In this document: positions 1-17,000 of the stretch, one piece after another | How positions within the stretch are numbered: position 1 is the stretch's first letter | How the letters are laid out: each line of letters begins with the position of its first letter | Origin: Candidatus Omnitrophus sp. | GTDB taxonomy: Bacteria; Omnitrophota; Gorgyraeia; Zapsychrales; Fredricksoniimonadaceae | Length of the DNA: 64,000 nt | Direction: 5' to 3' | Assembly: GCA_020719005.1 (NCBI GenBank) | Contig: DYQZ01000001.1 | Span: 5,779-69,778, forward strand | Notes under the pieces: generated by a model | What the model was told of the DNA's origin: nothing | Database searches by the model: none | Seen by the model: the letters and a program-made list of their open reading frames with translations, nothing else | Position numbers and translations under genes: made by a program

Positions 1-248
1 TCACGCTCGGCAACGGAGCTAAACTTGAAGCTCCGGAAACATCGATGAAATCTATTAATGCGTTCGTGCGCCTAAAGCAGGGTGAGACGGTTGTGCTCGG
101 GGGGCTTATCACGCGCAATAACGCTAAGCGGACAAGCAGTGTTCCGGTATTAAGCCGGCTCCCCCTTGTTGGAAAATTGTTCTCGTATGAAAGCGTTGAT
201 CGTAGGCGGACAGAATTGGTGGTGCTCATCACGCCGAGGAAAGGATAG
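1..248 (+). CDS. Secretin (GspD/PilQ family) C-terminal fragment; 5' end lies outside the window
   Basis: The frame is open from the window start (codons from position 3) to the stop at 246-248. The translation ...LKQGETVVLGGLITRNNAKRTSSVPVLSRLPLVGKLFSYESVDRRRTELVVLITPRKG* matches the conserved secretin C-terminal motif (ETVVLGGL ... VP.L..IP..G.LF ... E...LLV.ITP). Confidence 0.7.
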   Translation, partial: TLGNGAKLEAPETSMKSINAFVRLKQGETVVLGGLITRNNAKRTSSVPVLSRLPLVGKLFSYESVDRRRTELVVLITPRKG

Positions 249-250
249 TT

Positions 251-1432
251 GTGGGTAAATATCTGATCGCGAGTGACCGCGTATGGTTTGTTCATGAAAA
301 AGAAGAAGGGTGTGTTTCGTGGGAGGCTTTTGCATCAGCCGATTTTATGAAAGAAGCACCGGCATCAGTATTGTTGACGGAAATAGAATTCAAAAAGAAC
401 GGACCTGTTGTTAATGGTGATGTGCAAAAGAGCATGGGTCCCGCGGTTCTTTTTCCGGCGAACATGACAGTGCAGGAAGAGATTTTAAAGAATGGAATAC
501 GTCAGTGCGCCGGTGTGCGCAGTGAGCGTCTTCATGAAGTGCTCGGTGTATTTCCCAGGGGCAGCGTCAGGACGTGTGTTCCGTATGCATTATCGATACG
601 CGCATTTTTGATCGCGAACGGATTGTTTGAAGAAAAAGCGATCAGGGTTGTGGTCGAAGCGGCGGGAGAGATGGTTTTCTTGACCATCTTTGACGGGATG
701 GAAGTCATTGCCGTGCGCTCCCTGTCAGGGCTTTCTGTAGTTGAGGTTTCCGATGAGGTTTCACGCAGTTTGAAAAGAAGTGATGTTGTTTTGGATGAAC
801 GGACGAACTTCATTGTAAACAACAAAGAGATCGCGGAAATGCTGGTGACAGAAGATGTGTGTACCGGTGCGCAGGCGATCGTTACGGAAACAACACGCAT
901 GGCCTTCGGCGCGCTGGACCGTACAACGTTCAAAATGAATTTCTTACTTCCCGACGAGATTGCACGGCAGAAGCGGAAAGAATGGCGGCGGCGGTCTGTA
1001 GTGGTGTGGGCAGTGGCGGCGTTCGTTGTTGTTCTTGCTTTGTTGTATGTGATCGGGGGAGCTCATATTAAAAAAGAAGCATTAATGAAAGAGCAACGGG
1101 CCTTAGTGGAAATGGGCGAAGCAGAACGTTCGTTGAAAGAAAAAAGCGCCAACGTCTTTCGGGCGGTATTAAGAGAAAGGCCGGTATTGGAATATGAAAA
1201 GATATTCCAGGCGCTTTCAATAAACACACCCCGTGGATGGAGACTTGAGGCGGTTGATATACGCGAACAGGGATCGCTTAAAACGGTCATAGCTGTAACT
1301 TTTTCAGGAACACAGGATGGTGCATTTGTGTGTGAAGGGATGTTCCGTGTTTGTCATGTCCGGTCGTTCTTTGTATCAGGAAAATTGTGGTCTGTTGTTA
1401 ATGCTGAGGTTTATCAATGGGGAGAAAAATAA
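251..1432 (+). CDS. GspL/PilM-PilN-like inner-membrane assembly protein (cytoplasmic domain + single TM + periplasmic domain)
   Basis: 393-aa ORF with a GTG start 3 nt after the secretin stop. It has a ~250-aa N-terminal soluble domain and a basic stretch (RQKRKEWRRR) followed by the TM helix SVVVWAVAAFVVVLALLYVIGG. A coiled-coil and ~110-aa C-terminal domain follow. This topology is typical of GspL (a PilM+PilN fusion). The assignment is by architecture and context only. Confidence 0.4.
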   Translation: MGKYLIASDRVWFVHEKEEGCVSWEAFASADFMKEAPASVLLTEIEFKKNGPVVNGDVQKSMGPAVLFPANMTVQEEILKNGIRQCAGVRSERLHEVLGVFPRGSVRTCVPYALSIRAFLIANGLFEEKAIRVVVEAAGEMVFLTIFDGMEVIAVRSLSGLSVVEVSDEVSRSLKRSDVVLDERTNFIVNNKEIAEMLVTEDVCTGAQAIVTETTRMAFGALDRTTFKMNFLLPDEIARQKRKEWRRRSVVVWAVAAFVVVLALLYVIGGAHIKKEALMKEQRALVEMGEAERSLKEKSANVFRAVLRERPVLEYEKIFQALSINTPRGWRLEAVDIREQGSLKTVIAVTFSGTQDGAFVCEGMFRVCHVRSFFVSGKLWSVVNAEVYQWGEK

Positions 1433-1932
1433 TGCGTATGGTGTTTTTGTTGGGCATTACGGCGGGGATCGTGTTGTGTTTTGTCGGGACAACGGCGTTC
1501 AAAGAAGCACGCGCGATACAAGAAAGAACAGCTGTTTTCAGAGAAAAAATACAGCAGTTAAATAAAGAAAAAGAAGCGTTGTTGTGTTTTGATGAAAGTG
1601 CCCCGGTTCCGCTTGAAACGGTATATGTCCAGTGGATCAAGGATGTGTCGTTGCTGGCAGGCATGAGAAAGGTTTCTTTAGGAGTGGAAATGAAAGAGGC
1701 AAATTCCCTATCGGAAGAAGCACTATTGCTGGGAATAAAAAGATCACGGCTGGGGTTGGTTTTTTCCGGCTTACAGCGTTGGTCGGATCTCACGGGGGTG
1801 TTGGCGGGGATCGATGATCTGGTGCGCATCCCGGAACATTTTCCAGTGGTTGTTGATGCAGTGCGGCAGGAAAAGAATGTTTTATTTGTTGATGTGAGTT
1901 TGTTCGGAACAGCGTCAGGAGAAGAAATATGA
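1417..1932 (+). CDS. GspM/PilO-like bitopic inner-membrane protein
   Basis: 171 aa with an N-terminal TM helix (MVFLLGITAGIVLCFVGTT) followed by a coiled-coil (KEARAIQERTAVFREKIQQLNKEKEALL) and a small C-terminal domain. It overlaps the upstream stop (1430-1432), so an alternative start at ATG 1432 is preceded by GGGGAGA. Assignment by topology and operon context. Confidence 0.35.
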   Translation: MGRKIMRMVFLLGITAGIVLCFVGTTAFKEARAIQERTAVFREKIQQLNKEKEALLCFDESAPVPLETVYVQWIKDVSLLAGMRKVSLGVEMKEANSLSEEALLLGIKRSRLGLVFSGLQRWSDLTGVLAGIDDLVRIPEHFPVVVDAVRQEKNVLFVDVSLFGTASGEEI

Positions 1933-2381
1933 AAAAGAAGATAAAGATCATTAGTGTCGCATTGTTATTTTTAATAGGTATTTCTTCCGGCGTATACGCG
2001 CTCGAAAATGAAATGGAGCGGCTTCGTGAACAGTCACGGATCGAGCGGGTAAAGGAGGAAGAGATCCGGTTGCTGGCGCTTGATCTTGACCGGGTCAAGC
2101 TGGAGGCGGAGAAGAAGAAGGTGTTGGCGGAGGCTGGTGGCATTCTTCAACAGCAAGGCGTCTCTTCCGTAGCGCCTGGGGGCGTTGTGCCGCCGGAGAT
2201 CACGCTTAAGAATATTTTTATCGCAGTGTCACGCAAAGAGGCCGTGTTGGATGTGAATGGTGTGAGGGTGCGTTTGCTGGAAGGAGAGAAAAGAGGGCTC
2301 TTGTTTTTGAAAGAGGTTAACGCAAGAGGGGTGGTGTTGGTGTATGACGGTAAAGAAAATGTGTTGGGTCTGCGGTTATGA
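1929..2381 (+). CDS. Small periplasmic protein with signal/TM anchor, coiled-coil and C-terminal beta domain (PilP/GspC-like?)
   Basis: 150 aa: MKKKIKIISVALLFLIGISSGVYA signal-like N-terminus, a charged coiled-coil (ERLREQSRIERVKEEEIRLLALDLDRVKLEAEKKK), then a beta-rich C-terminus. Start and stop overlap the neighbours by 4 nt, suggesting translational coupling. Function inferred only from position. Confidence 0.3.
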   Translation: MKKKIKIISVALLFLIGISSGVYALENEMERLREQSRIERVKEEEIRLLALDLDRVKLEAEKKKVLAEAGGILQQQGVSSVAPGGVVPPEITLKNIFIAVSRKEAVLDVNGVRVRLLEGEKRGLLFLKEVNARGVVLVYDGKENVLGLRL

Positions 2382-3982
2382 AGAATGAACGGCTCGGCGC
2401 TATCTTATATCAACAGGATGAGACTTGCGGCCGACCCGTGGAAACGGGGTTGTCGTTGCAGCGGGCGTTGTCTTTTCCACAGCGCTTAGGGCGGTTGCTT
2501 GTTGAATATCGCCTGGTCGATGAAGAACGTATCACAAAAGCATTGGCATTACAGGCGGGGTGGCCCGTATTCGACGGAGAATGGATCGTTGATGAAAAGG
2601 GGCTTGATGATACGGGCGCGGCGTTCTTTCTGGAAAAAGAAGTCTTCCCGTTATTGGCCCCTGGCGGGAAAGCTTTTGTCATGGCTGACGGGGATCATCG
2701 GGAGGTGGTCGATCTTTTAAGAGCGCGTTATGGCGCAGATGTAAGATTTTTTATTGCTTCAGAGGCGGCGTTGGTTCAAGCCCTGGCATTGTTAACAAAG
2801 CCGGATCCATCAATATTGTTGGCAGAAAAAGCGTTGTTGAAAGATGTGGCAGAGCGTTTGTTGCAGGAAGCTGTTTCGAGTCAGGCCACAGATATTCATA
2901 TTGAACCATCAGAGAAAGCCGTCGAGGTGCGCTTGCGCGTAGATGGGGTATTGCATTTCTGGTATGCCTTCCCGCGTTCGGAGCTGGGGCGTCTGGTCAA
3001 TGTGTTCTTTCATCGAGCCGAGATCAGCGCAGGGGATTTCTTGAAATTTCACGACGCGCGTTTTGAATACAGGAATGGTTCTTCGGTCGTTGATGTGAGG
3101 CTTTCCCATATTCCTTCTGTCAATGGTCCGTCTTTGGTATTGCGTCTGCTCGATCGCGCAAGATCGCGGGTGGCATTAAAAGATCTTGGATATGCCGCGT
3201 GTCATCAAGAGGCGCTTACGGTTGCACGCGACGTTCCGCACGGACTTATGTTATTGACAGGTCCGACGGGCTGTGGAAAGACAACAACGCTTTACGCCAT
3301 GCTCGAGGAAATGCGTGGGGTCAGCACCAAGGTTGTTACCGTCGAAGATCCCGTTGAAGTGCGCATGCCACTCGTAACTCAGGTGCAGGTCGATATTCAA
3401 AAAGGGCATGATTTCTCGAATGTGACGCGGGCTTTGTTAAGGCATGATCCGGACGTGATCCTGATAGGAGAGGTGCGTGATGAAAAGACCGCGCGCGAGG
3501 CGTTGCGTGCTGCGATGACCGGGCATCGGGTGCTTGCGACCCTGCATACCAATGATGCGCCGGGTGCGATCTTAAGGTTGAAAGATTTGGGGCTCGAGTA
3601 TGGGCAGATCGCGAATGTGCTTGTGTGTGTCGGCGCCCAGCGGCTTGTGCGAAAACTTTGTCCGCATTGCAAAAAAGAGGTGACCGTTTATCGGAATAAA
3701 GTCAGTGCGCCGATGAAGAAATATTTGAAACAGGAAATAGTTCAGGTTTGGACGCCTGTTGGGTGTGAACGCTGCCGGGGAGGTTTTAAAGGGCGAACGG
3801 TTGTTGCCGAGATCTTTGTGATGGATGATGCGTCCCGATTCCTTATTGAACAGGGGCTTATTCATGAGCTTGTTTTGAAATTGAAAGAGAATAAAAATGT
3901 GATGAACATGAAGGGCGATGCCGGACGGTTGATCGAGGAGGGCATTATTTCTTTGTGCGAGGCGGTGAGGGTATGCGGATGA
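2378..3982 (+). CDS. gspE: Type II secretion / type IV pilus assembly ATPase (GspE/PilB family)
   Basis: 534 aa. Walker A LLTGPTGCGKTTTLYAML, Asp box TVEDPVEV, Walker B DPDVILIGEVRD, His box GHRVLATLHTNDAPGAILRL, and the C-terminal tetracysteine CPHCKK...CERCRG all fit the secretion-ATPase family. An N-terminal GspE_N-like domain is present. Confidence 0.9.
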   Translation: MKNERLGAILYQQDETCGRPVETGLSLQRALSFPQRLGRLLVEYRLVDEERITKALALQAGWPVFDGEWIVDEKGLDDTGAAFFLEKEVFPLLAPGGKAFVMADGDHREVVDLLRARYGADVRFFIASEAALVQALALLTKPDPSILLAEKALLKDVAERLLQEAVSSQATDIHIEPSEKAVEVRLRVDGVLHFWYAFPRSELGRLVNVFFHRAEISAGDFLKFHDARFEYRNGSSVVDVRLSHIPSVNGPSLVLRLLDRARSRVALKDLGYAACHQEALTVARDVPHGLMLLTGPTGCGKTTTLYAMLEEMRGVSTKVVTVEDPVEVRMPLVTQVQVDIQKGHDFSNVTRALLRHDPDVILIGEVRDEKTAREALRAAMTGHRVLATLHTNDAPGAILRLKDLGLEYGQIANVLVCVGAQRLVRKLCPHCKKEVTVYRNKVSAPMKKYLKQEIVQVWTPVGCERCRGGFKGRTVVAEIFVMDDASRFLIEQGLIHELVLKLKENKNVMNMKGDAGRLIEEGIISLCEAVRVCG

Positions 3983-5196
3983 TGTGCTGGAAATATGTAG
4001 CTATTGATCGTTCGGGGCGGGAAGAAAGCGGTTCTATCGACGGGAGCCGTGCTTTTGCACGTCAATTGTTGAGTGAAAAAGGCTTGGCGATCGTTATTTT
4101 ATATCCCTCTTTCAAGAGGTTCGGGCATAACGTTGTGTGCGCTAGGATCCGGCCGTTGTCATCAAAACAGCTGGTTTTATTTTTCAGGGATCTGGCGAAT
4201 ATGTTCGAGGCCGGGCTTGCCATTAATCAGGCACTGCTTGTTTTTAAGGAAAGCCTTGCTGACGGGAATACCGCCTTTTTTTGTCGAAGCATTCAAGAGA
4301 AATTGGCGCAGGGAGCGTCGCTGGCGGAGGCGGTCGATACAGGTGGCGTTATTCCAAAGGTCGCTGTCCAAGCGCTTCGTTCGGCTGAGCGTGCGGGTAG
4401 ATTGCCTGAAGTCTTGCGGATGCTGGCAGATTATTATGAAAAGATCCTGCAGGTGCGTCAAAAAACAGCAGGTGCTGTTATTTATCCAGTGATCGTGATG
4501 GGGCTTTTAGCAACAGTGCTGGTGTATATGTCGGTAGTTGTTGTTCCGCAAGTAGAGATGTTTTTGCCATCGTCGACGATGAAAGGGCCGCTCACCATGG
4601 CATTAATAAATATCAGTAAAGCGCTTCGCGTGGGTTGGCCATGGTTTTTGTTGGGAGGGGGCGTTCTTGGTGCGGGAGGGGTTGTGTGTTGGAAAAGGCG
4701 TCCTCTATGGTTTGAAGAGACTCTCGATCAGATGGCTGAACGTTTGCCGTGGATCAAGGGAGTAAAGAAGGATCTTTCGTTGAGCATGGCATTTTTTACG
4801 TTAGCGGTGTTGCAAAAAAGCGGTATTCCGATGGATGCGGCGTTGCGGGAAGTTTCTTTTGGTTCTCGGGGACAGACGGCGCGTGCTTTTGAAGAATGTT
4901 TAGCATGTTTATTGGGGGGCATGACGTTATCAGAAGCCGCCCGACGGGATAAATATTTCCCGCGATTCGTGCATGACACGTTGCATTTGGGCGAACAGAT
5001 GGGCAAATACGGTGAATACACCGAGCGGGTCCAGCAGGTTTTTTATAGATCATTTGTTTCGCGGATGGATTTGCTGGCGGAACTTGTTCAGCCGGTGATG
5101 TTGTGTTGTTGTGCGGGGAGTATTGCGCTGGTTGCCCTGGGGATCCTGGGGCCGATCTATGGGAATTTAGCCAATATCGGCGGGATGGTGAGGTGA
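3955..5196 (+). CDS. gspF: Type II secretion / type IV pilus platform protein (GspF/PilC family)
   Basis: 413 aa immediately after, and overlapping, the ATPase gene. The N-terminus YVAIDRSGREESGSIDGSRAFARQLLSEKGLAIVIL resembles GspF N-termini. It carries two repeated cytoplasmic helical domains separated by TM helices (AVIYPVIVMGLLATVLVYMSVVVVP; WPWFLLGGGVLGAGGVVCW; CCAGSIALVALGILGPIYGNL). Alternative starts at 3973 or 3979. Confidence 0.8.
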   Translation: MRGGEGMRMMCWKYVAIDRSGREESGSIDGSRAFARQLLSEKGLAIVILYPSFKRFGHNVVCARIRPLSSKQLVLFFRDLANMFEAGLAINQALLVFKESLADGNTAFFCRSIQEKLAQGASLAEAVDTGGVIPKVAVQALRSAERAGRLPEVLRMLADYYEKILQVRQKTAGAVIYPVIVMGLLATVLVYMSVVVVPQVEMFLPSSTMKGPLTMALINISKALRVGWPWFLLGGGVLGAGGVVCWKRRPLWFEETLDQMAERLPWIKGVKKDLSLSMAFFTLAVLQKSGIPMDAALREVSFGSRGQTARAFEECLACLLGGMTLSEAARRDKYFPRFVHDTLHLGEQMGKYGEYTERVQQVFYRSFVSRMDLLAELVQPVMLCCCAGSIALVALGILGPIYGNLANIGGMVR

Positions 5197-5199
5197 GAT

Positions 5200-6252
5200 A
5201 TGTCTGAAATAGTTGAACAGGCTTTTAATGAAGTGATCGGCCTTATTCATACGGCCCGCCGAAAAGCATTCCAGGCGGCGAATACGGTGTTGATCGAGTT
5301 GTATTGGCAGGTGGGGGAATATATTAGTCGCAAGATGAAAACGGCTGAATGGGGGGAAGGAGTTATTGAGAATTTGGCTCAATATATTGCAAAAGAGCAT
5401 CCGGATCTGAAAGGGTTTACGCGGCGTAATTTCTTTAGAATGAGGCAGTTGTATGAAGTTTATTGTGATGATCCAATTGTCGCGCCACTGGCGCGACAAT
5501 TACCCTGGGCGCACAATGTAGTTGTTTTAAATAAATGTAAGTTGCCGGAAGAACGAGAATTTTATACACGTTTAGCGATCAAAGAGCGCTTGTCCAAAAG
5601 AGCATTGGAACGGCAGATCGATGGGTGTGTTTTTGAAAGAAAAATGCTTGTTTCAACAAAAGTGCTCCCACTGGGAGCACTTTTATATCCCAATATACAA
5701 GAAGAGTTTAAAGATATTTACCTTTTAGACTTTCTGGATCTCCCCGCACATCATTCCGAACAGGATTTGCGCAGTGGTTTGGTCGCTAATTTGAAGAAAT
5801 TCCTCATGGAATTAGGGCGTGATTTTTGTTTTGTTGGTGAAGAATATCCATTGCAGGTCGGGAGCAAGGATTTTTCGGTGGACCTGGTGTTTTTTCATCG
5901 CGGCCTTTCTTGTTTGATCGCCTTTGAACTAAAGATCGATGATTTTAAACCAGCATACATGGGACAGCTTTCTTTTTATCTGGAGGCGTTGGATCGGGAT
6001 GTGCGTAAGCCCCATGAGAAGCCAAGCATCGGGATCTTGCTTTGTAAATCCAAAGATGCAGAAGTGGTCGAATATGTCCTGAGCCGCACGCTTTCGACCG
6101 CACTGGTCGCAGAATATAAAACACGTCTTCCCGAAAAAACAGTGCTTCAACAGAAGTTGCGGGAGTTCTACGAATTGGAGGCACAAAGAGATAGTGAGTG
6201 GAGACAAAACAAAAAAACAAAAGGAGCAGAAAATGAGAAAGAAAAACAATAA
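5200..6252 (+). CDS. YhcG-like PDDEXK-superfamily nuclease (DUF1016 family)
   Basis: 350 aa, with AGGTGA 7 nt upstream of the ATG. The C-terminal motif block DFSVDLVFFHRGLSCLIAFELKIDDFKPAYMGQLSFYLEALD matches the DUF1016/YhcG restriction-endonuclease-like core (D...ELK with a FYL..LD helix). The N-terminal helical domain (LIELYWQVGEYI) is typical of YhcG_N. Confidence 0.7.
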   Translation: MSEIVEQAFNEVIGLIHTARRKAFQAANTVLIELYWQVGEYISRKMKTAEWGEGVIENLAQYIAKEHPDLKGFTRRNFFRMRQLYEVYCDDPIVAPLARQLPWAHNVVVLNKCKLPEEREFYTRLAIKERLSKRALERQIDGCVFERKMLVSTKVLPLGALLYPNIQEEFKDIYLLDFLDLPAHHSEQDLRSGLVANLKKFLMELGRDFCFVGEEYPLQVGSKDFSVDLVFFHRGLSCLIAFELKIDDFKPAYMGQLSFYLEALDRDVRKPHEKPSIGILLCKSKDAEVVEYVLSRTLSTALVAEYKTRLPEKTVLQQKLREFYELEAQRDSEWRQNKKTKGAENEKEKQ

Positions 6253-6673
6253 AGGTTTTTCATTGGTGGAGCTGGCCATGGCCATGGGGCTTATGGCAGT
6301 GTTGGTTGGCGTCGTCGCGGCGGGTGGCGGGATGATGACGAAGTCGCGTGTTCAGCGGGAAGTTGATTCTATTGAGGGATTAAGACTGGCGGCACAAAAT
6401 TATCTATCGTCGAGCAGTTTGACTTTTACAGGGGTAAGCGTTACCGAACTTAAGAACAAAGGCCTTGTGCCGGCGACATTTGACCCGCTAAAAGCGAACA
6501 GTTTTGGTGGCGATTATAGCGTGAGTGCAAATACGGCGGACAGCACGCGTGTGGATATCGCGCTTGCTTTGATCCCGGAAGATGTTGGGACATCGCTTAG
6601 CGGCGCTTTTAAGGGCCGAGCCGAAGCTCTAACGTATGACAAAACAACCAAGATCTGGAAAGCCACATTTTAA
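6233..6673 (+). CDS. Prepilin-type (type IV pilin/pseudopilin) protein
   Basis: Start chosen at ATG 6233, with AAGGAG at 6221-6226. The ORF-track start 6194 is an upstream in-frame extension inside yhcG. The N-terminus MRKKNNKGFSLVELAMAMGLMAVLVGVVAAGG is a class III signal peptide: a G|FSLVEL cleavage/N-methylation motif with Glu at +5, followed by a hydrophobic helix. Confidence 0.75.
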   Translation: MRKKNNKGFSLVELAMAMGLMAVLVGVVAAGGGMMTKSRVQREVDSIEGLRLAAQNYLSSSSLTFTGVSVTELKNKGLVPATFDPLKANSFGGDYSVSANTADSTRVDIALALIPEDVGTSLSGAFKGRAEALTYDKTTKIWKATF

Positions 6674-6677
6674 TACC

Positions 6678-7094
6678 ATGATATTTTATCGACGGGCATT
6701 CAGTATGATCGAAATAACGCTGGCGTTGTTGGTTATGACACTTTTTATCGGAGGGGTCGTATCAACAGGGCGCGCGGTGATCGAGGATGCGCGCCAGGAA
6801 AAAGTATGGCGGACGCTCAGCGCATTTCTTGAGATCAGCGCGCAGTTTGATGCTGTGAAAGGGAAATATCCTGTCTCGATCGAGGAGGTCGTTTCATTCG
6901 ACACACGCGTACCCTTTTTTAATCCGTGGGGCAATGCGTATGTCGTTGTGCCGTCAGCTGCGTCGTGGTGTATCGAAACACGCGTTCCGTCGGTCCGAGG
7001 GGATATCCACCAAAGCAGTATTTTCGCGAGCGTTCTTTCACAAAAGGACGGGGATGTTCTTCGCGTGTGCAGGCCCGTTGTCACAACACCATAA
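6678..7094 (+). CDS. Prepilin-type pseudopilin (minor pilin-like)
   Basis: Start chosen at ATG 6678. The ORF-track start 6636 overlaps the previous gene. The N-terminus MIFYRRAFSMIEITLALLVMTLFIGGVVS has an A|FSMIEI prepilin-like motif (Glu at +5) and a hydrophobic helix, on a small (~138 aa) beta-rich body. Confidence 0.6.
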   Translation: MIFYRRAFSMIEITLALLVMTLFIGGVVSTGRAVIEDARQEKVWRTLSAFLEISAQFDAVKGKYPVSIEEVVSFDTRVPFFNPWGNAYVVVPSAASWCIETRVPSVRGDIHQSSIFASVLSQKDGDVLRVCRPVVTTP

Positions 7095-7106
7095 AAGAAA
7101 GAGCGT

Positions 7107-8027
7107 ATGGAACAAAAAGTCTTTTTACGTCGTGGTTTTACATTGATCGAACTGGCGATCGTGTTGTGTGTGAGCGCGATGCTCGCCGGGGCGCTGGTGC
7201 CGTCATTCGTTAAGAGTGCGCATATTGAGGCGGCACGTAAGACAGCGGCTGAAATGACGCTCCTTAAAGAAGCGGCACAACATTATTTCTTGAAGAATGC
7301 CGCATGGCCCGAGGATCTTGAAGCGCTGCGCGCATCGGGGGATATTGACGAGCGTTGGCCTGGAAGAAATCCTTTTGGAGATCTTTATGTTGTAACGCCG
7401 GACGTGGGGGGCCTTGTTCTATCAACAAAAGTTCCGTCGGCAATGGGGGATGTGGTGACGGGGGCTCTTGCGATGTCGGTCCAACAAGACGGAGAGGTGT
7501 CTTTACGCGTGACGTCTTCTCTCGATGGAGCGGGTGTGCCGGTGGGCGCGCTTTTGACTTGGCCTTCGGAGGATATTCCCGAGGGATGGGTTTTGTGTGA
7601 CGGCCGGGCGTTAGAACGCGCGGCATATTCGGCACTGTTTGCGCTGCTCGGCGTAAGTTATGGCGTTGGAGACGGAGTCACAACATTCAATGTGCCCGAC
7701 CTGCGCGGGCGTATTCCCGTCGGCTTGGATAATATGGGTGGCAGTGCGGCAAATGTGGTAAGCGGTCCATTGGCACGGACCCTCGGTGGAAAATATGGAG
7801 AAGAATCCCATGCGCTTACAGTGACAGAGATGCCGTCCCATAATCATTATGGATTCGGTGAAAATATTCCCCGCTGGCCGTATGGGACCTCCGGGCCGAA
7901 TAATAATCAAGGCCCTCCTCACGCTGATTATGACAATTATTTGCTCGGCACAACATTCTCCGGCGGAAACGCGTCGCACAATAATCTTCAACCTTCGATC
8001 GCCTTGTATTGGATGATCAAGACATGA
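7107..8027 (+). CDS. Prepilin-type pilin fused to a C-terminal phage tail-collar (Collar/MdpB-like) domain
   Basis: The N-terminus MEQKVFLRRGFTLIELAIVLCVSAMLAGALV is a G|FTLIEL class III signal peptide. The C-terminal half reads LTWPSEDIPEGWVLCDGRALERAAYSALFALLGVSYGVGDGVTTFNVPDLRGRIPVG...GEESHALTVTEMPSHNH. This matches the phage tail collar domain consensus (GW..CDG..L....Y..LF..LG..YG.GDG.TTF.LPDLRGR ... H.LT..E.P.H.H). A purine-rich SD-like stretch (AAAGAAAGAG) precedes the ATG. Confidence 0.7.
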   Translation: MEQKVFLRRGFTLIELAIVLCVSAMLAGALVPSFVKSAHIEAARKTAAEMTLLKEAAQHYFLKNAAWPEDLEALRASGDIDERWPGRNPFGDLYVVTPDVGGLVLSTKVPSAMGDVVTGALAMSVQQDGEVSLRVTSSLDGAGVPVGALLTWPSEDIPEGWVLCDGRALERAAYSALFALLGVSYGVGDGVTTFNVPDLRGRIPVGLDNMGGSAANVVSGPLARTLGGKYGEESHALTVTEMPSHNHYGFGENIPRWPYGTSGPNNNQGPPHADYDNYLLGTTFSGGNASHNNLQPSIALYWMIKT

Positions 8028-8908
8028 AATATATCCGATATCTTAGCTTGGTAGCATTGATCGTTTTTCATTGTTCTGCGTGGGCGATCGCAGCAAGGGC
8101 CGCGTCCATGATGACGCTCGCCGCCAAGGCAGATTGGTCGTGTGTGGAGTTCAAGACGCTTGGGCCGTGTTATCGAAAAACACTTCCCTACGTTGGGGTC
8201 AAGATCCGATATCGTCAGCCCGTATTATTGGTTGAGACGGTAAAGATCCCCGGAGATACGGTGATCAATGAAATGCGCGTGTTTCTGGGCGCACGATTAA
8301 AACAAAACGCGCGGGCGGCTATGAAACAGAGGACTGGGGTTGATGGCGATCCGTCCTCCGGCGGTGTCTTTAATGGCGACGGGACCGCCTTGTCGATGAA
8401 TGAAGCGCACGTATTCTCGTTCCCGTTGACAGATGTTTTCTCCACCGTTGTCGTAGCCCCTTGCGAAGGCGCGCCGGATTTAGCCGGGCCTATTGGTTAT
8501 ATCAGTGAGCTCGACGCAAAAGAGTGGCGCACGGGTGAAACGGAACAGCGGTTTTGCGGGGATCAGAATGGTGTATGGCCTTTGCCCGGGACATGGCTTG
8601 GCACATGGGGCCCGATCTATCCACGCACGGGCTGGTCGGTGGGAACGACGTCTCCTGTTGCCTCGGCCTTAAGCGCGTATCGGGCGGTCGATATTTCGTC
8701 CATCAAGCCGCAATTGCCGCGTGTTGTATTATCGAAAGTTTTATTCGTGCCGGATCTTTTCTGGGACCGGATGCAGATGGTTTATCCGTCGGCAGGAAAG
8801 TGTATCCGTATCGGTGAGGACCCGCGTTTATGGGAAAACGGAAAGAATTCTTTTGACGGGAAATTTGCATGGATATTCTGGCGAAAAAAAGAGTGTTGTC
8901 TTTTCTGA
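8009..8908 (+). CDS. Hypothetical secreted protein (Cys-containing, Trp/Gly-rich)
   Basis: 299 aa overlapping the previous stop. It has a signal-peptide-like segment MKYIRYLSLVALIVFHCSAWAIAARAAS, so an alternative start is ATG 8024. No recognisable catalytic motifs. Codon usage is consistent with its neighbours. Confidence 0.45.
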   Translation: MDDQDMKYIRYLSLVALIVFHCSAWAIAARAASMMTLAAKADWSCVEFKTLGPCYRKTLPYVGVKIRYRQPVLLVETVKIPGDTVINEMRVFLGARLKQNARAAMKQRTGVDGDPSSGGVFNGDGTALSMNEAHVFSFPLTDVFSTVVVAPCEGAPDLAGPIGYISELDAKEWRTGETEQRFCGDQNGVWPLPGTWLGTWGPIYPRTGWSVGTTSPVASALSAYRAVDISSIKPQLPRVVLSKVLFVPDLFWDRMQMVYPSAGKCIRIGEDPRLWENGKNSFDGKFAWIFWRKKECCLF

Positions 8909-9258
8909 TATCGACGGTAATAGCGTGTCACTTTGCATCATTAGCATGGTCGGGTGTATATGAATTAAGCCGTGTGGATTATTTTAATATATACGAAATT
9001 CGACGAGAGAAAAACGACACGGCTTCGCGGCAGGCATTCTCATCCGATGATCTGTGGGCGGTGGAAATGACCGATAGCGCCGGCCGTTCGTTTTTACAGC
9101 GTCCGCCGGAAGTTGTGATGGAACTGTTGAACGATCCCAATACTTTGAATGGATCGAAATATCTCGCATGGAACGAGGCGCGCATCAAACATTTGGAGCA
9201 GGCGGCGGCGTTGTTGGACGAAATATCAAAAGATCCGTCGAGGAGAACACAAAGGTGA
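8869..9258 (+). CDS. Hypothetical small secreted protein
   Basis: 129 aa with an N-terminal signal-like helix MDILAKKRVLSFLISTVIACHFASLAWSG. It overlaps the previous gene by 40 nt. No known motifs recognised. Confidence 0.4.
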   Translation: MDILAKKRVLSFLISTVIACHFASLAWSGVYELSRVDYFNIYEIRREKNDTASRQAFSSDDLWAVEMTDSAGRSFLQRPPEVVMELLNDPNTLNGSKYLAWNEARIKHLEQAAALLDEISKDPSRRTQR

Positions 9259-9262
9259 TGTG

Positions 9263-10480
9263 ATGACGTGGAAAGCAAAAGCATTGTTCATCGGCGCGGT
9301 GTTGTGGATCATCACCACAGGGGATGCGCCCGCTGATATTTTTGAGCGATACAGCGATCCGTCAATGTTGCGACAAGAGGCGTTGCGACTGGATCGCACA
9401 GGTTATGACGCCACACTCGTCGGCGGCTATATCGGCATTCCTGCGGGTGATGTCCTTTCGCCTTCATCCCGCCGGAACTGGTCGGCGAAAAGCGTTTCTG
9501 ATATTGATCCAGAGGAGGTCTTTGACAAAGATCTCCGGCGAATGATCGAACGCGACCGCAAAAGCACGGTGTCGTATTCGTCGGTGTTGTCTAACAACGC
9601 TCTTTTGTTGATGTCTTATGCCAGTCCCGCCATGGCGGATATTTTAAAACATTACAGAGCATCTTTGTTTGCCCGTATGAACATTGAATACGAGCGTTCA
9701 GCACAAAAAGACAATCCTTCGTCGGCGACGCTCGAGCTTTTCTATCGCGCCTCGCTTGATGCGTGCCTTTATCAGGAAAGGACGCGTGGATTTCTCGGCG
9801 GGCTTGAGGTGTGCAGGAAAGAGCCGCCGCTCGGGCACATCAAAGATCCGACCGGGCAATTTGTCACAACACACAGGCCGTGGGCGATCGTGATGGATGC
9901 GCTGACCCGCGTGGGTTTGAACAATCGCGCGGCGCGTCTGGCTGTTGCCATTGCGGGTGATGTGGTCATTGATCCGCAAGGCATCAACGAAACGGCCCAT
10001 ACACGTACATTTTTTACAGAGACCGAAGCCCGCGCTAAAGAGCAGATGACCGATTGGATCAAAATGCTAAGAAATTTTTCCGAAACAAAGCGCGTCAGTG
10101 ATGTTGAACTCGACATGTTAAGTTGGCCTGGTTTTTCTATAACACGAAATGCGCTGAACGATCTTTTGACCCTCAACGAAACAAAACGGGCTTTGTTCAT
10201 TTCCAGGATGGCGCAGTTGTCCGCGAGCGAGGATGTCAAAAACGACCTTCAGGGAGCGTTAAGGGCTTTAGACAGGGGGATGGCTCGTTCTGGAGCGGAT
10301 GATGTCTTTAAGAGCATCCTAAAGGCAAAGAAAGCGGTATTGATAGGGGTATTGGCAGACAAGAAAGACAAGGATGCTGGTTTTAGGGCATCGGAAGAAC
10401 TTTTTGAGGTTTTGTTAGTGGATGCGGATATTGCCAGAAAGCAAATTCTAACAAGCATGGGTGGCGTTAAAACCGAATGA
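9263..10480 (+). CDS. Hypothetical secreted protein
   Basis: Start chosen at ATG 9263 (AAGGTGA at 9251-9257). The ORF-track start 9149 overlaps the previous gene. The N-terminus MTWKAKALFIGAVLWIITTGDAPA is signal-peptide-like. The ~405-aa mostly helical body has no recognised motifs. This is the last gene before the intergenic region. Confidence 0.5.
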   Translation: MTWKAKALFIGAVLWIITTGDAPADIFERYSDPSMLRQEALRLDRTGYDATLVGGYIGIPAGDVLSPSSRRNWSAKSVSDIDPEEVFDKDLRRMIERDRKSTVSYSSVLSNNALLLMSYASPAMADILKHYRASLFARMNIEYERSAQKDNPSSATLELFYRASLDACLYQERTRGFLGGLEVCRKEPPLGHIKDPTGQFVTTHRPWAIVMDALTRVGLNNRAARLAVAIAGDVVIDPQGINETAHTRTFFTETEARAKEQMTDWIKMLRNFSETKRVSDVELDMLSWPGFSITRNALNDLLTLNETKRALFISRMAQLSASEDVKNDLQGALRALDRGMARSGADDVFKSILKAKKAVLIGVLADKKDKDAGFRASEELFEVLLVDADIARKQILTSMGGVKTE

Positions 10481-10974
10481 AACACGAAAGAAGTTTGTTT
10501 TGACGTAACATATTGATGGTATCTAACTTATGGAACATGTAAGAATGTCCAAAGTAACAGAATGGACAATCTTTTCCGACGGGAATGTGGGTTTATTCCA
10601 GGATGCAAGAATGATGAGGGTGTGAGCAATCGAAGGCGCCCCCTCACCCTTCTGGTTCGGGATGACGTGACGGAGGTGTGAGATGACGCGGCACGTCATT
10701 CCGCGGCCGACTTGTGGTGAGCCAGGTCGAACCAAGCCCGAGGAATCGCCGAACGTTGTTACGATCCGTCATATCGAGCCCGCAGGCAAACCGAGACATT
10801 GCTTACGCTATCAATAAATAATTTTTTATACTAATTAATATATAAACAACTAAAATTTATAGTAAAAATAAACAAAAAAGCGGAAATAAAAAATAAATCC
10901 AAAGAAAGTTTTCTCCAAAGCCGTAAGTTGTTATAATTTAAAGGATTACGATAATAAAAAGATTTCTCAAAAAC

Positions 10975-11002
10975 TTGCCACGCCTTGATAATATGCTATA
11001 CT
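10975..11002 (+). promoter_or_regulatory. Sigma70-like promoter for the giant gene: -35 TTGCCA (10975-10980), 16-nt spacer, -10 TATACT (10997-11002)
   Basis: Near-consensus hexamers with 16-bp spacing sit directly downstream of a very AT-rich stretch (10800-10970, UP-element-like). The predicted TSS is about 11009, giving a ~60-nt leader to ATG 11069. Confidence 0.4.
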
Positions 11003-11068
11003 CTTCATGTCGTCCTTGGTGGGACGATAGATATGTTTCATGAATAAACCCGTATCAAATGGGAAAAC

Positions 11069-14000
11069 ATGGACGAAAACCGCAAAGACCTCAACAAGAA
11101 CGACATTAGTCCCCTTTTTGGGGATGAGTCTTTGCGCGCGGTGTCTGAAACAAGTAATATTCCAGCAAAAACCCCCTCCACAACGCCCCTGACCCCGAAA
11201 AATGGGCATGCGGCTTTGGTCAATGAATTCAAAAATATGGTTCCCGACGGTGTTACGTCGAAGGATTCAGCTGAGACCTCAGTGCCTCCGGCAGGCGTTT
11301 TTGATGATGTGGACCCCGCTCTCGTAGGTGTGGGCATGGGTTCAGATGGTTTTGTGTTGGGTGCTGAGGATGCTATTGTCACACCCGAAGGTCCGTATTC
11401 CAGCCGTTTTAGCACGTGGATGCGCGTTGTTGCTTTTGCGATCGTTGCTATTTTTCTACCAGATCAGATCAGCTGGGCGTTTAATTATAATCCTGCCGTT
11501 CTTTACGGGAATCAGGTTTCAACGGTCATGGCCCCCATGCCCGGGATGGATCTTCTAACACCAAAACAACTTTCTTCCATGCAGGTTTCGGCCAGCGTTA
11601 CCGACCTCTTAAAACAAGTTTCTGAAAAGAGCGCGGATAAAGTAAGCATCAAACTTGATGATAATCAAGGACTTATGGGCCTGAATGGAAAAGAGCCCGC
11701 TATCCTTGAGATCAACAACGAAGCCAAAATGACCGCGCCCCAGATCGAACAGGTGCGTGCGTGGTTGAGCGATCCGAAGATCAATGCCCTCAATTGCGGT
11801 GTGTTCGCGCTGAAAGAAATATTGTCTGGTAATGGTATAGATAAAACCGTTACAGAACTTGCTGTTACGACGATCAGCACCGATTTGATGGCTAATATCA
11901 TCAAGCCTGGCGATAAAAAACTTAAAGTTACGCTTTATTCCATGACCGAAGTTGCTAAAGCCCTTGGTCTGAACGTCAAGGCCTTAAAAGTGGCACCGGC
12001 TGAAATGCTCGCCCTTCCCAAGCCGTTCGTGGCGCATCTTTCCGACGAGCACTTTATTACAGTTTTAAAGACAGATGGCAATGATGTTGTAGTGAGCGAT
12101 ATGGGCGAAACGCTCCATATGGCGCGCGACGATCTGGCCGCGAAAGCCAGTGGTTTTGTCCTTTCCCGCGTTGATGCCAACATCCTTCCTTCCTATAAAG
12201 AGGTTTCTTCATCCGCCCAGGCTTTCGTGTGGGGCGACCGTTGGAAGCGTCAAAAGCTTCCGGGGCTTGAATCTGCAGGGTCACAGCTGAGAAAATATGC
12301 GATCGACATGACGATCAAACTCGTCACGGCGATCATCGCTTTCTTTTGTGGTCCGGCGGGTTGGATCTCCTGGATCGTTGCTCAGATCGCCGATGCGCTT
12401 ACTAGGATATGTGTTGTGGCGGGTGCTTGTACGGCAAAACAGGCGTTTATCATTAATACAGCAATAGCTGTGGCGACGATCATCTGTACGCTTGGGGCAA
12501 GTTCTTTAAATACAGCAGGACAACAAACCGCAGCACAAGCTGGCGCACAAGCTTTCAAGGGGGCTCTTACAACCGCGTTAGGAACTGTTGTAGGGACTGT
12601 TGTATATGCGGCAATCGGCCTTGCTATTGGTGTAGGCGCGGCGCATTTATTATGGAAAGTCAATCAAAAGATAGACGCAAAATATGGTTCTAGTTCACCG
12701 ATCGCAATGACGTTGAAGGCGGTTGCGTCCGCGGTTGTGACGGGTGCATGTACAACCGGTCTGTTTAGCTGGGGGAACGCTATTAAAGATGGTCTGAAGA
12801 GCATGGCCAGCGGAGTGGGTACAGAAGCGGCAAAACAAGGCGCACAACAAACGGCTGCGGATTTTGCTGTAGCGATGTTTGTTAAGCTTCCGAAGTCGGT
12901 ATTAGATGGTATTGGTATAACCTCAAGTAGTGATGCCTTTAGGAGATTTTTATATACACAAGGCGGTTCTTTGGCTGTACGCATGGCATTTAAAAATAGC
13001 AAGGATACGGCATTGGTTGATGCGTTGGCCACTCTTGGTGGAGCGGCAGCTGGACTGGCGGGGTCTTATATTGAACATGGAGCTACGACTGGAGACTGGG
13101 CGGGTGTTCCAACGTCTCTTGGAGAAGAAATAGAGCCCGTTGATCCTACAACTGTTAATACGATGGCGGAAGCCACTACATCCGACGCGCCCAGGTCAGC
13201 TGTAGGTCAGTGGATCGACACAAAGATCCATAATACGGGTTGGACAGGGGCGATCGTTAGAACGATGGGCAGAGCAACTCTCGAGGCGAGCGTTTCATTT
13301 ACTATGGGCAGGATGGAAAAGAGCGTTGTTGGCGAAGATGATGGTTCGGCCGCTTATCAACAAAAACTTTTGGGGTATCGTTCGTTGAGTTTTGGTATTG
13401 CTGGAATGATCACAGGGGTTTATATAGGAGTACGTTCGGCGTTGGATTCCAATGGAACCGGCATGGTATCTTCTTTCTTTAAGGGTTTTGGGGGTGGCAT
13501 GGTAACTGGCGCTATGGATAGTCTTACCAAAGCGTATGGTAAGCAGGATTTTGATACGATCATGAGTAATGCTCCTAAGCAGGGCGGGATAGGCGGGGAT
13601 GTCGAATATAACATGGCTTTGGTAAATGCGGCTCAAGGCATGTCTAATAATACAGGTATGACCTATGAATATTTCAGCAGTTGGGATGCGCAATGGAAGA
13701 CGATGAAAGAAGAGAACGCCAAGTCTGACAATCCGGTGAGTCAAAAAGAATTGCGCAAGGAATATCAAAAAGCTTTTGGTCGAGATATTCAAAGCACCCC
13801 CGGCATCACAGGGATGAACGGTATTTTAAAGACAGCTAATATTGATATGCGTGTCAAAGCTGTTGAGAGCGGTGTGAGTTGGGCTATGACCCGCGGGCTT
13901 ACTTCAGGCTCTCTTGAGCATCAGCAAGCCAAACGTGCGGTGGTCAAGCTTGGATTGACCTATCGTGGAAAAGAATTATTTGCTGGATCTGATCGACAGT

Positions 14001-17000
14001 TCGCAGAAAAGAACGGTCGTGCGTTGAGTTATTATGTAGAACAGGCTGAATTATATTCTGAAAAAGCCTCCACGTTATGGGGTGAGGGTGCATATACAGC
14101 TACGGTATTTGCTTCCGGTAAAAGAGAATTCAATAGTAATGTCGACAGTGAATATATGCCCGATCGCGATATCGTGTCAAAGGACGGCACGTATACAGCT
14201 AATTTAAAGACGGGCGAGATCAAATATTCAGATGGGCGCGTAGTGGTCGACGCGGCTACTGTTGGAACAATGCTCAACGAGGGTCAGCTGAAGGATCCTT
14301 TCAAAGTTGATATGAACCAGCCGTGGGCCCAGAACACGACTAAAGTCAACGCACGATATATTGATACAAGCTCGATGGGGATCGCACGCTTTGGAGATCG
14401 GTATGCGCTGAATAATGTGCCGAATGTTATTACTATAATGACGCCAGATGGCCAGAAGAGGGTCGTTAATAATCCTCTGGTTCTTTCCAGCTCTGTTTAT
14501 AATTTTGATGCCAAGCGCGCGGAAATGAGTGGTAATCAAGCGGCTTATATTCAAAATTTTCAGCAGGGTCGTTTAGCACAACAAGCGGCGTTTGAAAAAA
14601 CGTTGCCGCCGGAAATGGTTGCAACAGCGCAAGCGTTAGCAAAGAATGATCTGACCAATCCGCAGGTGCAGGCATTGATGAAGGCCAATGGCGGCGATTT
14701 TAATGGCGCCGTTCAGGCTTTTAAGAAAGAAGTGTTGAGGGTTTCCCCGATGCTTTCTTCTCCGAGCACACCGAAAGCATTCAATCATGATGCCCGTTCC
14801 CAAGAGATCGATAATTATTTGCAGCCCGTCGACTCCACTACACTTTGGAGTGTTTCAAGAAGGAACGAATTCGGAAAAGATAATCAGGCGGGGGTTTCGT
14901 TCGGGGTAATTAAAAATCAGGATGGTTCTTCGACACCATCAATGACACCGTCGATGACTTTATATCAGAAGACGCCTTCCGGAGAGCTTCTTGGTGTGGC
15001 CGCTTTTGTTTCAAGGGCTATGACCGCTGATAACACGAACGGGAAGATCCTTTCTGGTCAGGGTAGTTTAATGGCTTTTAATAGAGAAGGAAGTCTTGCG
15101 TCGCTTCGCCAGATGAACAATGAACAAACACCGTCAGAAGCTGTGCTGTCCGGCGGAATATGGGAAAAGACGGCGTTTGGGAATAATGGCGCCTCGTCGG
15201 CAAATATGCTTGATGCAACGTTCAAACAGATGAAGAGCGAAAACATCGACGCAAATATTGGCACCAAGCATTTGGTTTATGCCGGCATGGGCGATGGGAA
15301 CGAAAAGGCCGCGGCCTCTGTTGCGAACGATTTTATTTCTACTGATATGGGGTCTGGGGAAAGAGCATTAACAACAGTGACGACGCGTGATGTTATAGGC
15401 GCACGAAATATTATTTACTCGACGGATTCACAGGTTATTTCAAATCAAAATATTGAAAAGAACACGGGAAGATTTGTTACTGGGGTCGCGGTTGATAAGA
15501 GGGTTAATTTGCCCATGTTCTTGATGCCTGATAATGGCGTCTCCGGTTTAGGTGTGCGGCAGCTTTTGTTGAATGGTTCTTCGGAAATAGTAGATGAAGG
15601 CACGAGCCGTTTTCTTGGTGATGCTAAATACGCCACAGATGAAAATGGTTTGGCGGAGGCAAAAGGTTTTAGTTTTGATGGAAGATTGAAAGGAATAACA
15701 GTTGATGGCAAGACACAAGGCCGTGTGCTTTATCAATTCTCTGCCGGCGAGTCATCTAAAGATCCGTTTCAAAAGAACGGAAGTCAAGGAGAGATGAGTC
15801 AAGTTCGTGGGGAAAAAGACGCGTATCCTTTCATGCGTGCAGTTAATTTAACTCAGGCTGGGGACAATCTTGTTGTAAAGAATAATGGGAGCAATGGTTT
15901 TCAGATCGAAGGGCCACAGACTTTTCGTTCGACTGCACAGGGCGGCACACATCCGACCATGATGCCTGTTTTGATGAACGACACATACACGTCGACACAT
16001 TTTGCAGCGGCTCTTGTGAATGGAGGAAAGACGGTTACGAAGGATGATAAAGGCAATAATGTATATGAAAACGGAACCATGCTGGATGTTAGCGCGTTTG
16101 AGTCAAAAGATAAGGTTAATGGAAAAGATATTACTAACAAGACGATCGTGAACGGCAGCCTTGTTTATGATGCTCAAAATGGTCAGTGGCTTGCTGAGAA
16201 GGGCAATACAGCGTTGACAGGTAGTGCGGAAAGAACAGTGGACGGAACAAATAAAATAATGGTTTCCAAAGATGCTCCGATCGTGTTGGCAGATCGCAGG
16301 GTTCAATTTACTTTGACTGGTGAGACACAAGAGAATGTTCCAGGGTTCAATAAACAAACACAGCAAGGCTGGGCGCAAGAAGTAAAACAGGGAGAGCTTT
16401 TAAAGCAGGATGAAGCAATTGTGCCGCAAGTCGGCGGCACTGTTGGAATACCTGGTTTTAATGACAATAAAGCACAGATGAAGATGCTGAATGATGTTGA
16501 GAAAGCAAATCAAACAGATGCGAAAATTAGTGGTATTCAAGGGACCAATGGGGAAGCTCTTCCGGCAGTAAATGTTGAAGGTTCTGTTTCTTATCGGTTG
16601 GGCAATGAAAATAGCGCGCTTAATACTGCTTTGTGGGACGGTGGTTCAAAGTTAACACTAAAGGATAGTTCCTTTATTAGAGCTGGAAACAATTTATATT
16701 TTGCAACACCCCAAAAAGGAAAAGAAAAAGAAGTTTCGACTGTTCAGCTCAACTATGACCAAAACGGTAGTATTTATGCTGAACAAAGCGGCGCGCCGAT
16801 CAAACTTGGCCTCTGGTCACACGCATCAAGTTCTGATACACACTTTACAGAATTTACGGTTATGGGTGATCAGTTGGCGCTTACAGGCGCTTTGCCTACG
16901 ACCAAGGGAGATTTGAAATTATTAACTGCAGAGGGTATTAGCGCCCTGGATGCCAATCCAAATTTCTTTAGCGGTAAGACATTAAAAGGTTTGGGTATTG

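Follow-up and report, generated by a model that had tools for sequence, protein, structure and literature searches.

Gene organization of the locus

In a 64,000-nt stretch of contig DYQZ01000001.1 from Candidatus Omnitrophus sp. (assembly GCA_020719005.1; hereafter the window), a dense cluster of pilus- and secretion-related genes at positions 1-10480 precedes the 5' part of a giant gene. Based on gene identities, gene orders and synteny, this cluster is probably the distal part of a widespread F-type type IV secretion system (T4SS) of the Omnitrophota with an embedded type IVb pilus, and the giant gene is probably a separate unit whose adjacency to it is specific to one lineage.

The open reading frame (ORF) map of positions 1-10480 shows thirteen genes, all on the + strand, with overlaps or gaps of a few nucleotides between neighbours, as the initial annotation had stated. 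Its recognition of a secretin, GspE, GspF and prepilin-type genes is likewise borne out by the family matches given below and by three prepilin-type N-termini. A spacer of 588 nt separates the end of the last cluster gene (10480) from the start of the giant ORF (11069). The features are as follows.

1-248, + strand: secretin C-terminus (PilN/GspD-type), last 81 codons, gene cut by the left window edge (PF00263, 7e-21)
251-1432, + strand: 393-aa bitopic assembly protein with a cytoplasmic N-domain, a transmembrane segment at about aa 250-275 and a periplasmic C-domain
1417-1932, + strand: 171-aa protein with an N-terminal transmembrane helix, PilO/GspM-like by position only
1929-2381, + strand: 150-aa protein with an N-terminal signal or transmembrane segment and a coiled coil, with the size and position of IncI PilP
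2378-3982, + strand: assembly ATPase of the GspE/PilB/PilQ type (PF00437 T2SSE, 1.8e-97)
3955-5196, + strand: inner-membrane platform protein of the GspF/PilC/PilR type (PF00482 T2SSF, 7.6e-41, two stretches)
5200-6252, + strand: YhcG/DUF1016 PDDEXK nuclease (PF06250, 9.4e-54; PF17761, 3e-42)
6233-6673, + strand: prepilin, G/FSLVE (PF07963 N_methyl, 2.3e-6; TIGR02532)
6636-7094, + strand: minor pilin-like protein, A/FSMIE (by sequence motif; no family match)
7107-8027, + strand: prepilin, G/FTLIE, fused to a phage-tail-collar domain (PF07484 Collar, 3.6e-23; Gp10_C, 4.9e-5; N_methyl, 4.5e-4)
8024-8908, + strand: TraU-family periplasmic protein with signal peptide (PF06834, 1.5e-27)
8869-9258, + strand: 129-aa exported TraF-like protein, N-terminal half only, without the thioredoxin-like C-domain (tblastn to distant homologues)
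9263-10480, + strand: divergent TraH-like periplasmic protein of 405 aa with signal peptide (PF06122 at family level; ORF opens at 9149)
10481-11068, no strand: intergenic spacer with GC-rich direct and inverted repeats, an AT-rich stretch, a promoter-like site and a hairpin
11069-64000, + strand: giant gene, 5' part; open from 11048, first ATG at 11069, no stop in 17,644 codons, running off the window

For comparison, a scan with an alignment of TraU, using one genome per species, recovered 29 loci (numbered with the prefix L), almost all of them labelled Omnitrophota. The closest relative is represented in two samples, as L001 and L002, by the metagenome-assembled genome (MAG) GCA_964411515.1 from NCBI and by an independent Joint Genome Institute (JGI) metagenome contig.

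TraU, TraF-like and TraH-like proteins

The three genes ahead of the spacer had been described as secreted hypothetical proteins. Instead, the first encodes TraU, and the other two probably encode a shortened TraF-like protein and a divergent TraH; all three have signal-peptide-like N-termini. TraU, TraF and TraH are periplasmic pilus-assembly proteins characteristic of F-type T4SSs, and the operon is hence not a plain type II secretion system (T2SS) operon.

The TraU ORF opens with TTG at 8009, and ATG 8024 overlaps the preceding stop codon. The protein scores 97.2 bits against PF06834 (cut-off 26.5) and covers profile positions 3-305 of 306; it also matches TIGR03756 (1e-14) and, with a lower score, the F TraU model PRK13737 (1.8e-8). 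Its homologues number 42, and all that carry an organism name belong to the Omnitrophota. Single genes have already been named TraC or TraU in database annotations.

For the 129-aa TraF-like protein, tblastn yields alignments with the N-terminal half of 238-256-aa proteins in L020, L022, L030 and L033, and these four homologues match PF13728 TraF (1.5e-8 to 5e-5) and Thioredoxin_2. The protein measures 103-158 aa in the clade of the window versus 238-256 aa elsewhere, the thioredoxin-like C-terminal half having been lost (window 8869-9258 compared with L022 11421-12152). The clade of Candidatus Velamenicoccus archaeovorus has an extra 201-aa protein between TraU and TraF (L022 10819-11424), which shows sub-threshold thioredoxin-like matches (E 0.04-0.2). 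The TraH assignment is made at the level of the family: 10 of the 21 members of the alignment (A2) match PF06122 TraH, the best at 1.5e-14, and hhalign of the family against F-like TraH gives 41% probability (E 2.8e-4). A profile search of PDB with the same family returned nothing meaningful.

The type IVb pilus module

Positions 1-8027 hold the genes of a putative type IVb pilus. The end of the window's secretin is 98.8% identical to that of a 505-aa secretin in L001, and the assembly ATPase shows 42-52% identity across the cluster loci. The platform protein likely starts at ATG 3979 or 3982. Its homologue is broken into two ORFs in L001 (5965-7190) and in L002 (4763-5966), at different points, and is intact in the window; the split may reflect pseudogene formation, programmed frameshifting or a sequencing error.

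Three genes lie between the secretin and the ATPase where the initial annotation had placed GspL/M-like proteins. Such genes are indeed present at 251-1432, 1417-1932 and 1929-2381, but the family label is a guess from size and membrane topology. The 393-aa protein is conserved beside the secretin in 10 loci (alignment A3) and takes the place that PilO has in the thin-pilus operon of IncI; it could be a GspL/PilM-N-like candidate. It has no Pfam or NCBIfam match, a PDB profile search of its family was empty, and hhalign against R64-type (IncI) PilO gave a non-significant 0.4% probability. A single-sequence AlphaFold2 model of it was discarded at a pLDDT (predicted local distance difference test) of 40. 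Neither the 171-aa nor the 150-aa protein matches Pfam or NCBIfam. Homologues of the former were found only in L001/L002 and L027. The latter is conserved in both variants of the cluster described below (alignment A4); hhalign of its family against PilP aligned the C-terminal 39 columns only, at 3.6% probability, which does not establish homology.

Of the three pilin-type genes, the prepilin at 6233-6673 is the probable major pilin, in a PilS-like position. It is the best-conserved pilin, with 55-63% identity in distant loci, and its V. archaeovorus homologue gives a weak PilS match. The minor pilin-like protein, whose real start is probably ATG 6678, has a paralogue in the N-terminal portion of the Collar pilin. 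The latter, in a PilV-like position, is a candidate tip adhesin. Of the 29 genome loci, 24 have it immediately ahead of TraU, and the remaining five are cut off at or shortly before TraU or are without the module (L020).

The nuclease gene between the platform gene and the major pilin was seen only in the window and in L001/L002, being absent from this place in all other cluster loci. The YhcG nuclease, which the initial annotation had not mentioned, is a lineage-specific insertion and no pilus or secretion component, and it is probably a recent selfish insertion within the pilus module. Selfish insertions of other kinds occur elsewhere: in V. archaeovorus, a GNAT and TacA1 pair of opposite orientation separates the Collar pilin from TraU (L044 21646-22516).

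Genes preceding the secretin in related genomes

Two relatives provide the sequence ahead of the secretin, namely L043, the upstream stretch of the 85%-identical relative GCA_964411515.1, and L044, from the complete genome of V. archaeovorus. In GCA_964411515.1, whose TraU is 85% identical, the gene order is as in the window, nuclease included. Toward the secretin, L043 encodes a 97-aa TraA-like protein, TraL (weak), TraE, a 218-aa protein, TrbI/TraB, a 137-aa protein, an 820-aa TraC and a 147-aa protein; thrS-infC-rpmI-rplT is found three genes further upstream of the TraA-like/TraL set. The NCBIfam matches are 0.0019 for TraA-like, 5e-5 for TraL, 2e-10 for TraE, 6e-30 for TraB and 1.9e-123 for TraC (F-type). 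V. archaeovorus has TraE, TrbI, TraV (weak) and TraC in the same order, with TraG_N and a coupling protein further upstream, both of which occur in this flank only. TraK was assigned in the relatives by position, and TraV by position and a weak match.

TraC-like ATPases are located directly upstream of the secretin in L006, L008 and L011 as well. TraC homologues show 52-96% identity over more than 100 database clusters, and all those with an organism name are from the Omnitrophota. The T4SS order of the relatives is traA-like, traL, traE, (traK), traB, (traV), traC, then traU, traF-like and traH-like, and a complete type IVb pilus module has probably entered this F-like T4SS between traC and traU. 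The initial annotation had proposed a search of the flanks for missing components. Regarding the prepilin peptidase, no Peptidase_A24 gene was found in the window or in the flanks of L001, L003, L004, L043 and L044; it may be encoded elsewhere in the genome.

Comparison with known systems

The order of the pilus genes had been regarded as non-canonical for a type IV pilus, but it corresponds to that of the type IVb thin-pilus operon found on IncI plasmids. In the annotated plasmid pS124 (LC567093.1), this operon reads pilM (145 aa), pilN (secretin), pilO (431 aa), pilP (150 aa), pilQ (ATPase), pilR, pilS and pilV; the window together with L043 gives 147 aa, secretin, 393 aa, 171 aa, 150 aa, ATPase, platform, prepilin, pilin and collar-domain prepilin. 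The two agree in operon order, including the 147-aa gene of L043 at the pilM position, and in linkage to a conjugative T4SS. Unlike IncI, the PilO-like and PilP-like proteins show no detectable homology, no prepilin peptidase or PilT-like gene is present in the operon, and the partner T4SS is F-type and not MPF_I (MPF, mating-pair formation), in a chromosomal cluster interleaved with tra genes. The adhesin pilin also differs from pS124 in carrying a phage-tail-collar domain and in showing no multiple C-terminal segments of the PilVA/PilVB kind. The match to the thin pilus is therefore a resemblance of architecture and not proven membership.

The annotated F-type (MPF_F) T4SS of pSARA13 (NZ_CP017729.1) has the order A-L-E-K-B-V-C-(W)-U-...-F-...-H. 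Shared with it is TraU in the window; probable counterparts are the TraF-like and TraH-like proteins in the window and, in F order, TraA-like, TraL, TraE, TraB and TraC in the relatives, all of them very divergent. The 137-aa gene of L043 sits at the traV position, and a weak TraV match is present only in V. archaeovorus. On the other hand, TraW, TrbC, TraN, TrbB and a relaxase were not found in the window and the inspected flanks, there is no evidence of mobility, the type IVb pilus module stands where F has trbI-traW, and the TraF-like protein has no thioredoxin domain in the clade of the window.

A further comparison concerns the MPF_G integrative and conjugative elements (ICEs), represented by the annotated pUM505 (NC_016138.1). 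These share a TraU-like TIGR03756 protein followed by a periplasmic protein of about 460 aa, with a TraC-like ATPase and TraG_N nearby. However, TraB, TraE, TraL and TraC of the relatives score best against F-type models, and hhalign of the TraH-like family against the ICE 460-aa protein gave 3.7% probability, which is not significant. The T2SS (Gsp) likewise has a secretin, an ATPase and a platform protein, but these are common to every type IV filament system and do not discriminate. As to T2SS pseudopilins, only sub-threshold N-terminal matches were obtained, to GspG (35.6 bits, cut-off 88.85) and GspH (22, cut-off 80), and none to GspI, GspJ or GspK. The three bitopic proteins at 251-2381, candidates for the roles of GspC, GspL and GspM, had no family match.

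Conservation of the cluster and its downstream neighbours

According to tblastn, the block of GspE, GspF, pilins, Collar pilin, TraU, TraF-like and TraH-like is found in most of the 29 loci, and in ten of them it is preceded by the secretin and the 393-aa protein. A reduced variant occurs in L004, L010, L014, L015 and L019, where the order is pilins, Collar pilin, TraU, TraF-like, (the 150-aa gene,) GspE and GspF; it has no adjacent TraH, secretin or TraC, and the 150-aa gene is present in four of these five loci. In L004/L005 the reduced variant adjoins spoVG and translation genes.

A giant ORF follows the cluster in none of the 20 loci of distant species, for each of which 6.6-8.8 kb of downstream sequence was available; the longest open frame there has 1,981 codons. 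Downstream neighbours include tatA/tatC (L003), a type I restriction-modification system (V. archaeovorus) and P-II/ammonium transporter genes. Only L001/L002 continue into a homologue of the giant N-terminus, at 88.6% identity. As the cluster is thus widespread without an adjacent giant gene, the adjacency is no evidence of joint function.

The long frame in L006 (13558-19500) encodes a 1,980-aa protein 1.5 kb downstream of the TraH-like gene. It was considered as a small homologue of the giant and rejected, being a PKD/InlB-repeat/papain-like surface protein without similarity to the giant.

Neighbourhood of homologous giant genes

The giant ORF is uninterrupted for 52.9 kb within the window. 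Its N-terminus consists of a module of transmembrane segment, Peptidase_C39 domain (aa 287-365) and transmembrane segment, and about 20 hydrophobic segments are distributed over the part in the window. With this module, a very long ORF and multiple transmembrane segments, the gene belongs to the Omnitrophota giant genes with a C39-peptidase N-terminus. Twelve database proteins and 56 metagenome loci carry the module at 30-45% identity.

A database search with the N-terminal 700 aa returned only partial proteins with a C39 domain, and on their contigs a pair of T2SSF genes encoding about 270-296 aa, not the window's cluster, lies directly upstream. The 56 loci came from a scan of metagenomes based on an alignment of this module; in 53 of them the ORF runs without a stop, for as many as 3,923 codons, until the contig or the fetched stretch ends. 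A Tad-like cassette is located upstream in 46 of the 56. In L037 it consists of small genes, a 546-aa gene, a gene of about 1,300 aa and a 147-aa gene, followed by TadB-like and TadC-like genes; in L099 its part further upstream includes a T2SSE fragment and a gene whose product has a class III signal peptide. In L038 (1624-3106), another selfish insertion, a HipA toxin-antitoxin pair, is situated between a T2SSF gene and a giant gene. Two giant loci for which the full 10 kb upstream was available show housekeeping genes only (pheT, mgsA, rny, ymdB, two PilZ genes, gltX).

Matches to the window's GspE, GspF, pilins, TraU and TraH were found in none of the 56 loci, so the comparison with other genomes carrying giant genes, which the initial annotation had recommended, places this cluster upstream of none of these giants. 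Conversely, tblastn with eight cassette proteins of L037 detected no remnants of a Tad cassette in the window (best E = 0.27). The window and the Tad-like locus have in common a type IV filament-family cluster that lies upstream of a C39 giant gene, co-directionally and with a spacer between. The latter comprises a T2SSE fragment, small genes whose products have class III signal peptides, and the T2SSF pair of about 270-297 aa; none of its genes has a homologue in the window.

The occurrence of Omnitrophota giant genes near secretion or pilus machinery, mentioned in the initial annotation, is a published theme: giant genes beside type II/IV-like machinery have been reported (10.1101/2023.11.21.568195, section 11, Fig. 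7A; 10.64898/2026.06.07.730766, section 10). The Tad-like cassette, not the cluster in the window, fits the locus of West-Roberts et al. 2023 (10.1101/2023.11.21.568195, Fig. 7A), and is likewise consistent with the Tad complex described for V. archaeovorus (Seymour et al. 2023, PMC10066038). The published association of giant genes therefore appears to concern a machine other than the one described here.

The spacer and a promoter-like element

The spacer contains a sigma-70-like promoter element at 10975-11002 (TTGCCA-16 nt, TG, TATACT). The last ~190 nt before the giant ATG are near-identical in L001, while the adjoining TraH C-terminal coding sequence has diverged. Upstream of homologous giants, the motif TGCTATAMT was counted eight times in 55 windows (700 nt each) versus once in about 693 kb elsewhere on the same strand, which corresponds to an approximately 140-fold enrichment before giants, and its flanking context resembles that in the window. 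Since the motif recurs before homologous giants with other neighbours, the presumed promoter goes with the giant gene. These comparisons support the assignment of the element, a promoter by sequence pattern, to the giant gene, whatever adjoins upstream, in line with the earlier proposal that the giant gene has its own promoter.

Written out, the motif TTGCC/TTGTT ... TATAAT-TGCTATACT recurs irrespective of the upstream gene, with sites at 9413 in L055, 6097 in L056, 3406 in L072, 9565 in L078, 9528 in L084, 9411 in L090 and 9367 in L094. A hairpin with a 9-bp stem (11008-11029), 100% identical in L001, lies between the -10 element and the giant start codon and could be a structure of the 5' untranslated region or an attenuator. 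GC-rich repeats with units of the GGTTCGGGATGACGT type are present both in the window (10654-10703) and in L001 (12585-12660), with differing copy number (three tandem 20-mers in L001). The units make up an inverted repeat, CGGGATGACGTGACG / CGGCACGTCATTCCG, and are without an Rfam match. An Rfam scan of positions 1-12000 produced one chance-level match only, and thus no known RNA element in the spacer.

Interpretation

If positions 1-10480 are the distal part of an F-type T4SS with an embedded type IVb pilus, the analogy with IncI plasmids suggests that a pilus tipped by the collar-domain pilin might capture a host or partner cell, and the T4SS with TraU, TraF and TraH, powered by TraC, would then form a transfer conduit for DNA or protein. 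A second analogy for the pairing of a pilus with a T4SS is provided by PAPI-1-type elements. On this reading, the most economical one, the giant gene would be its own transcription unit, and in this lineage it has probably moved from its usual Tad-linked site to a position behind traH.

Several observations weigh against this reading. The window's own copies of the TraH-like and TraF-like proteins match no family directly in Pfam or NCBIfam, and the T4SS matches other than TraU are all divergent, with NCBIfam scores under the curated cut-offs. The traA-traC half of the system is inferred from relatives; the window begins inside the secretin. Relaxase, TraW, TrbC, TraN and prepilin peptidase were seen neither in the window nor in any inspected flank, which leaves conjugative function and pilin processing putative. 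With respect to synteny, five loci break off no more than 0.9 kb beyond the cluster, four of them past TraH and L014 past GspF, and carry no information. No intrinsic terminator was detected between traH and the giant gene, making read-through transcription possible. The junction and the conserved intergenic region have been kept in a second species-level lineage, which would also fit a selected arrangement. Finally, homologous giants usually stand behind another type IV filament machine (Tad), and a need for some such machine in cis is possible.

The strongest alternative is the model of the initial annotation, in which the pilus or secretion cluster works as a single unit with the giant protein, which the machine would secrete, display or place on the cell surface for attachment to a host. 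The two are directly adjacent and co-directional, their junction is conserved in a second lineage, and the 46 giants behind a Tad-like cassette leave room for a non-orthologous substitution of Tad in the window. Against this stand the counts from both sides, with a giant downstream of 0/20 distant cluster loci and the cluster upstream of 0/56 giant loci, so that a functional coupling is not supported; the two giant loci preceded by housekeeping genes only, the conserved promoter-like element and the 588-nt spacer also speak for an independent giant gene. Moreover, about 20 hydrophobic segments fit poorly with the export of a folded substrate through a secretin. Altogether, we consider such a unit unlikely, though the least unlikely of the alternatives.

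A more far-reaching reading can also be considered. A widespread, chromosomally domesticated F-type apparatus, fused with a type IVb pilus whose tip pilin has a receptor-binding collar domain, could serve as an organelle for capturing host or prey cells that moves DNA or protein across the contact, and the giant gene could have swapped its ancestral Tad partner for it here. This scenario is speculative and rather unlikely; if true, giant proteins would need some type IV filament system encoded in cis.

It is also conceivable, but quite improbable, that the cluster is an integrated conjugative element and that the giant gene borders it or is its cargo, the adjacency reflecting the insertion site. 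An F-type gene set in F-type order, the coupling protein and TraG_N of V. archaeovorus, the selfish insertions in the cluster (YhcG in the window, GNAT/TacA1 in V. archaeovorus) and the splitting or rearrangement of the cluster in L003, L004, L010, L014, L015 and L019 would all suit such an element. However, the restriction of named TraC homologues to the Omnitrophota, at 52-96% identity, fits long residence in the phylum, the flanks consist of housekeeping genes that differ between lineages, and no integrase or relaxase was found in the ~6-10 kb of flank per side.

The initial annotation had named mis-assembly, or a juxtaposition unique to this contig, as grounds for abandoning its model: although giant genes often break assemblies and both L001 and L002 break off some 1.4 kb after the giant gene begins, a chimera of a pilus contig and a giant-gene contig is excluded for practical purposes by the same TraH-spacer-giant junction in the GCA_964411515.1 MAG and the independent JGI metagenome contig and by the giant ORF unbroken for 52.9 kb, whereas the juxtaposition comes close to uniqueness, being restricted to one narrow lineage.

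Under the preferred interpretation of a T4SS/pilus hybrid with a separate giant gene, two machines have been lumped together as the 'type II secretion-like' neighbours that are at present taken for partners of Omnitrophota giant genes, a Tad-like cassette and an F-type T4SS with a type IVb pilus. The former is the conserved neighbour of this giant-gene family, and the hybrid is widespread independently of giants; telling the two apart guards against over-reading adjacency. We found no description of an Omnitrophota T4SS/type IVb hybrid in the searchable literature. What is new is the recognition of this hybrid cluster, set apart from the Tad-like locus; the general theme of giant genes beside such machinery is already published. 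A conjugation-like apparatus in ultra-small, host-dependent bacteria could bear on their attachment to hosts and on the extensive lateral gene transfer reported for the phylum, and the conserved motif before giants offers a handle for transcript studies.

Further features of the giant protein and the window

Within the giant protein, the region encoded by positions 36200-64000 (aa ~8,390-17,100) contains scattered NAGPA, guanylate kinase, 2H phosphodiesterase, NUDIX, M28 peptidase, UPRTase, HAD, PEP-utilizers_C, HATPase_c and Bac_transf domains. Domains of these kinds are more usual in the nucleotide and sugar metabolism of the cytoplasm. The part of the protein covered by the window showed neither a SecA-like nor an adhesin domain.

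Across the whole window (1-64000), in which all genes lie on the + strand, each 2-kb bin has a positive GC skew (0.08-0.30), and the cumulative curve climbs monotonically.

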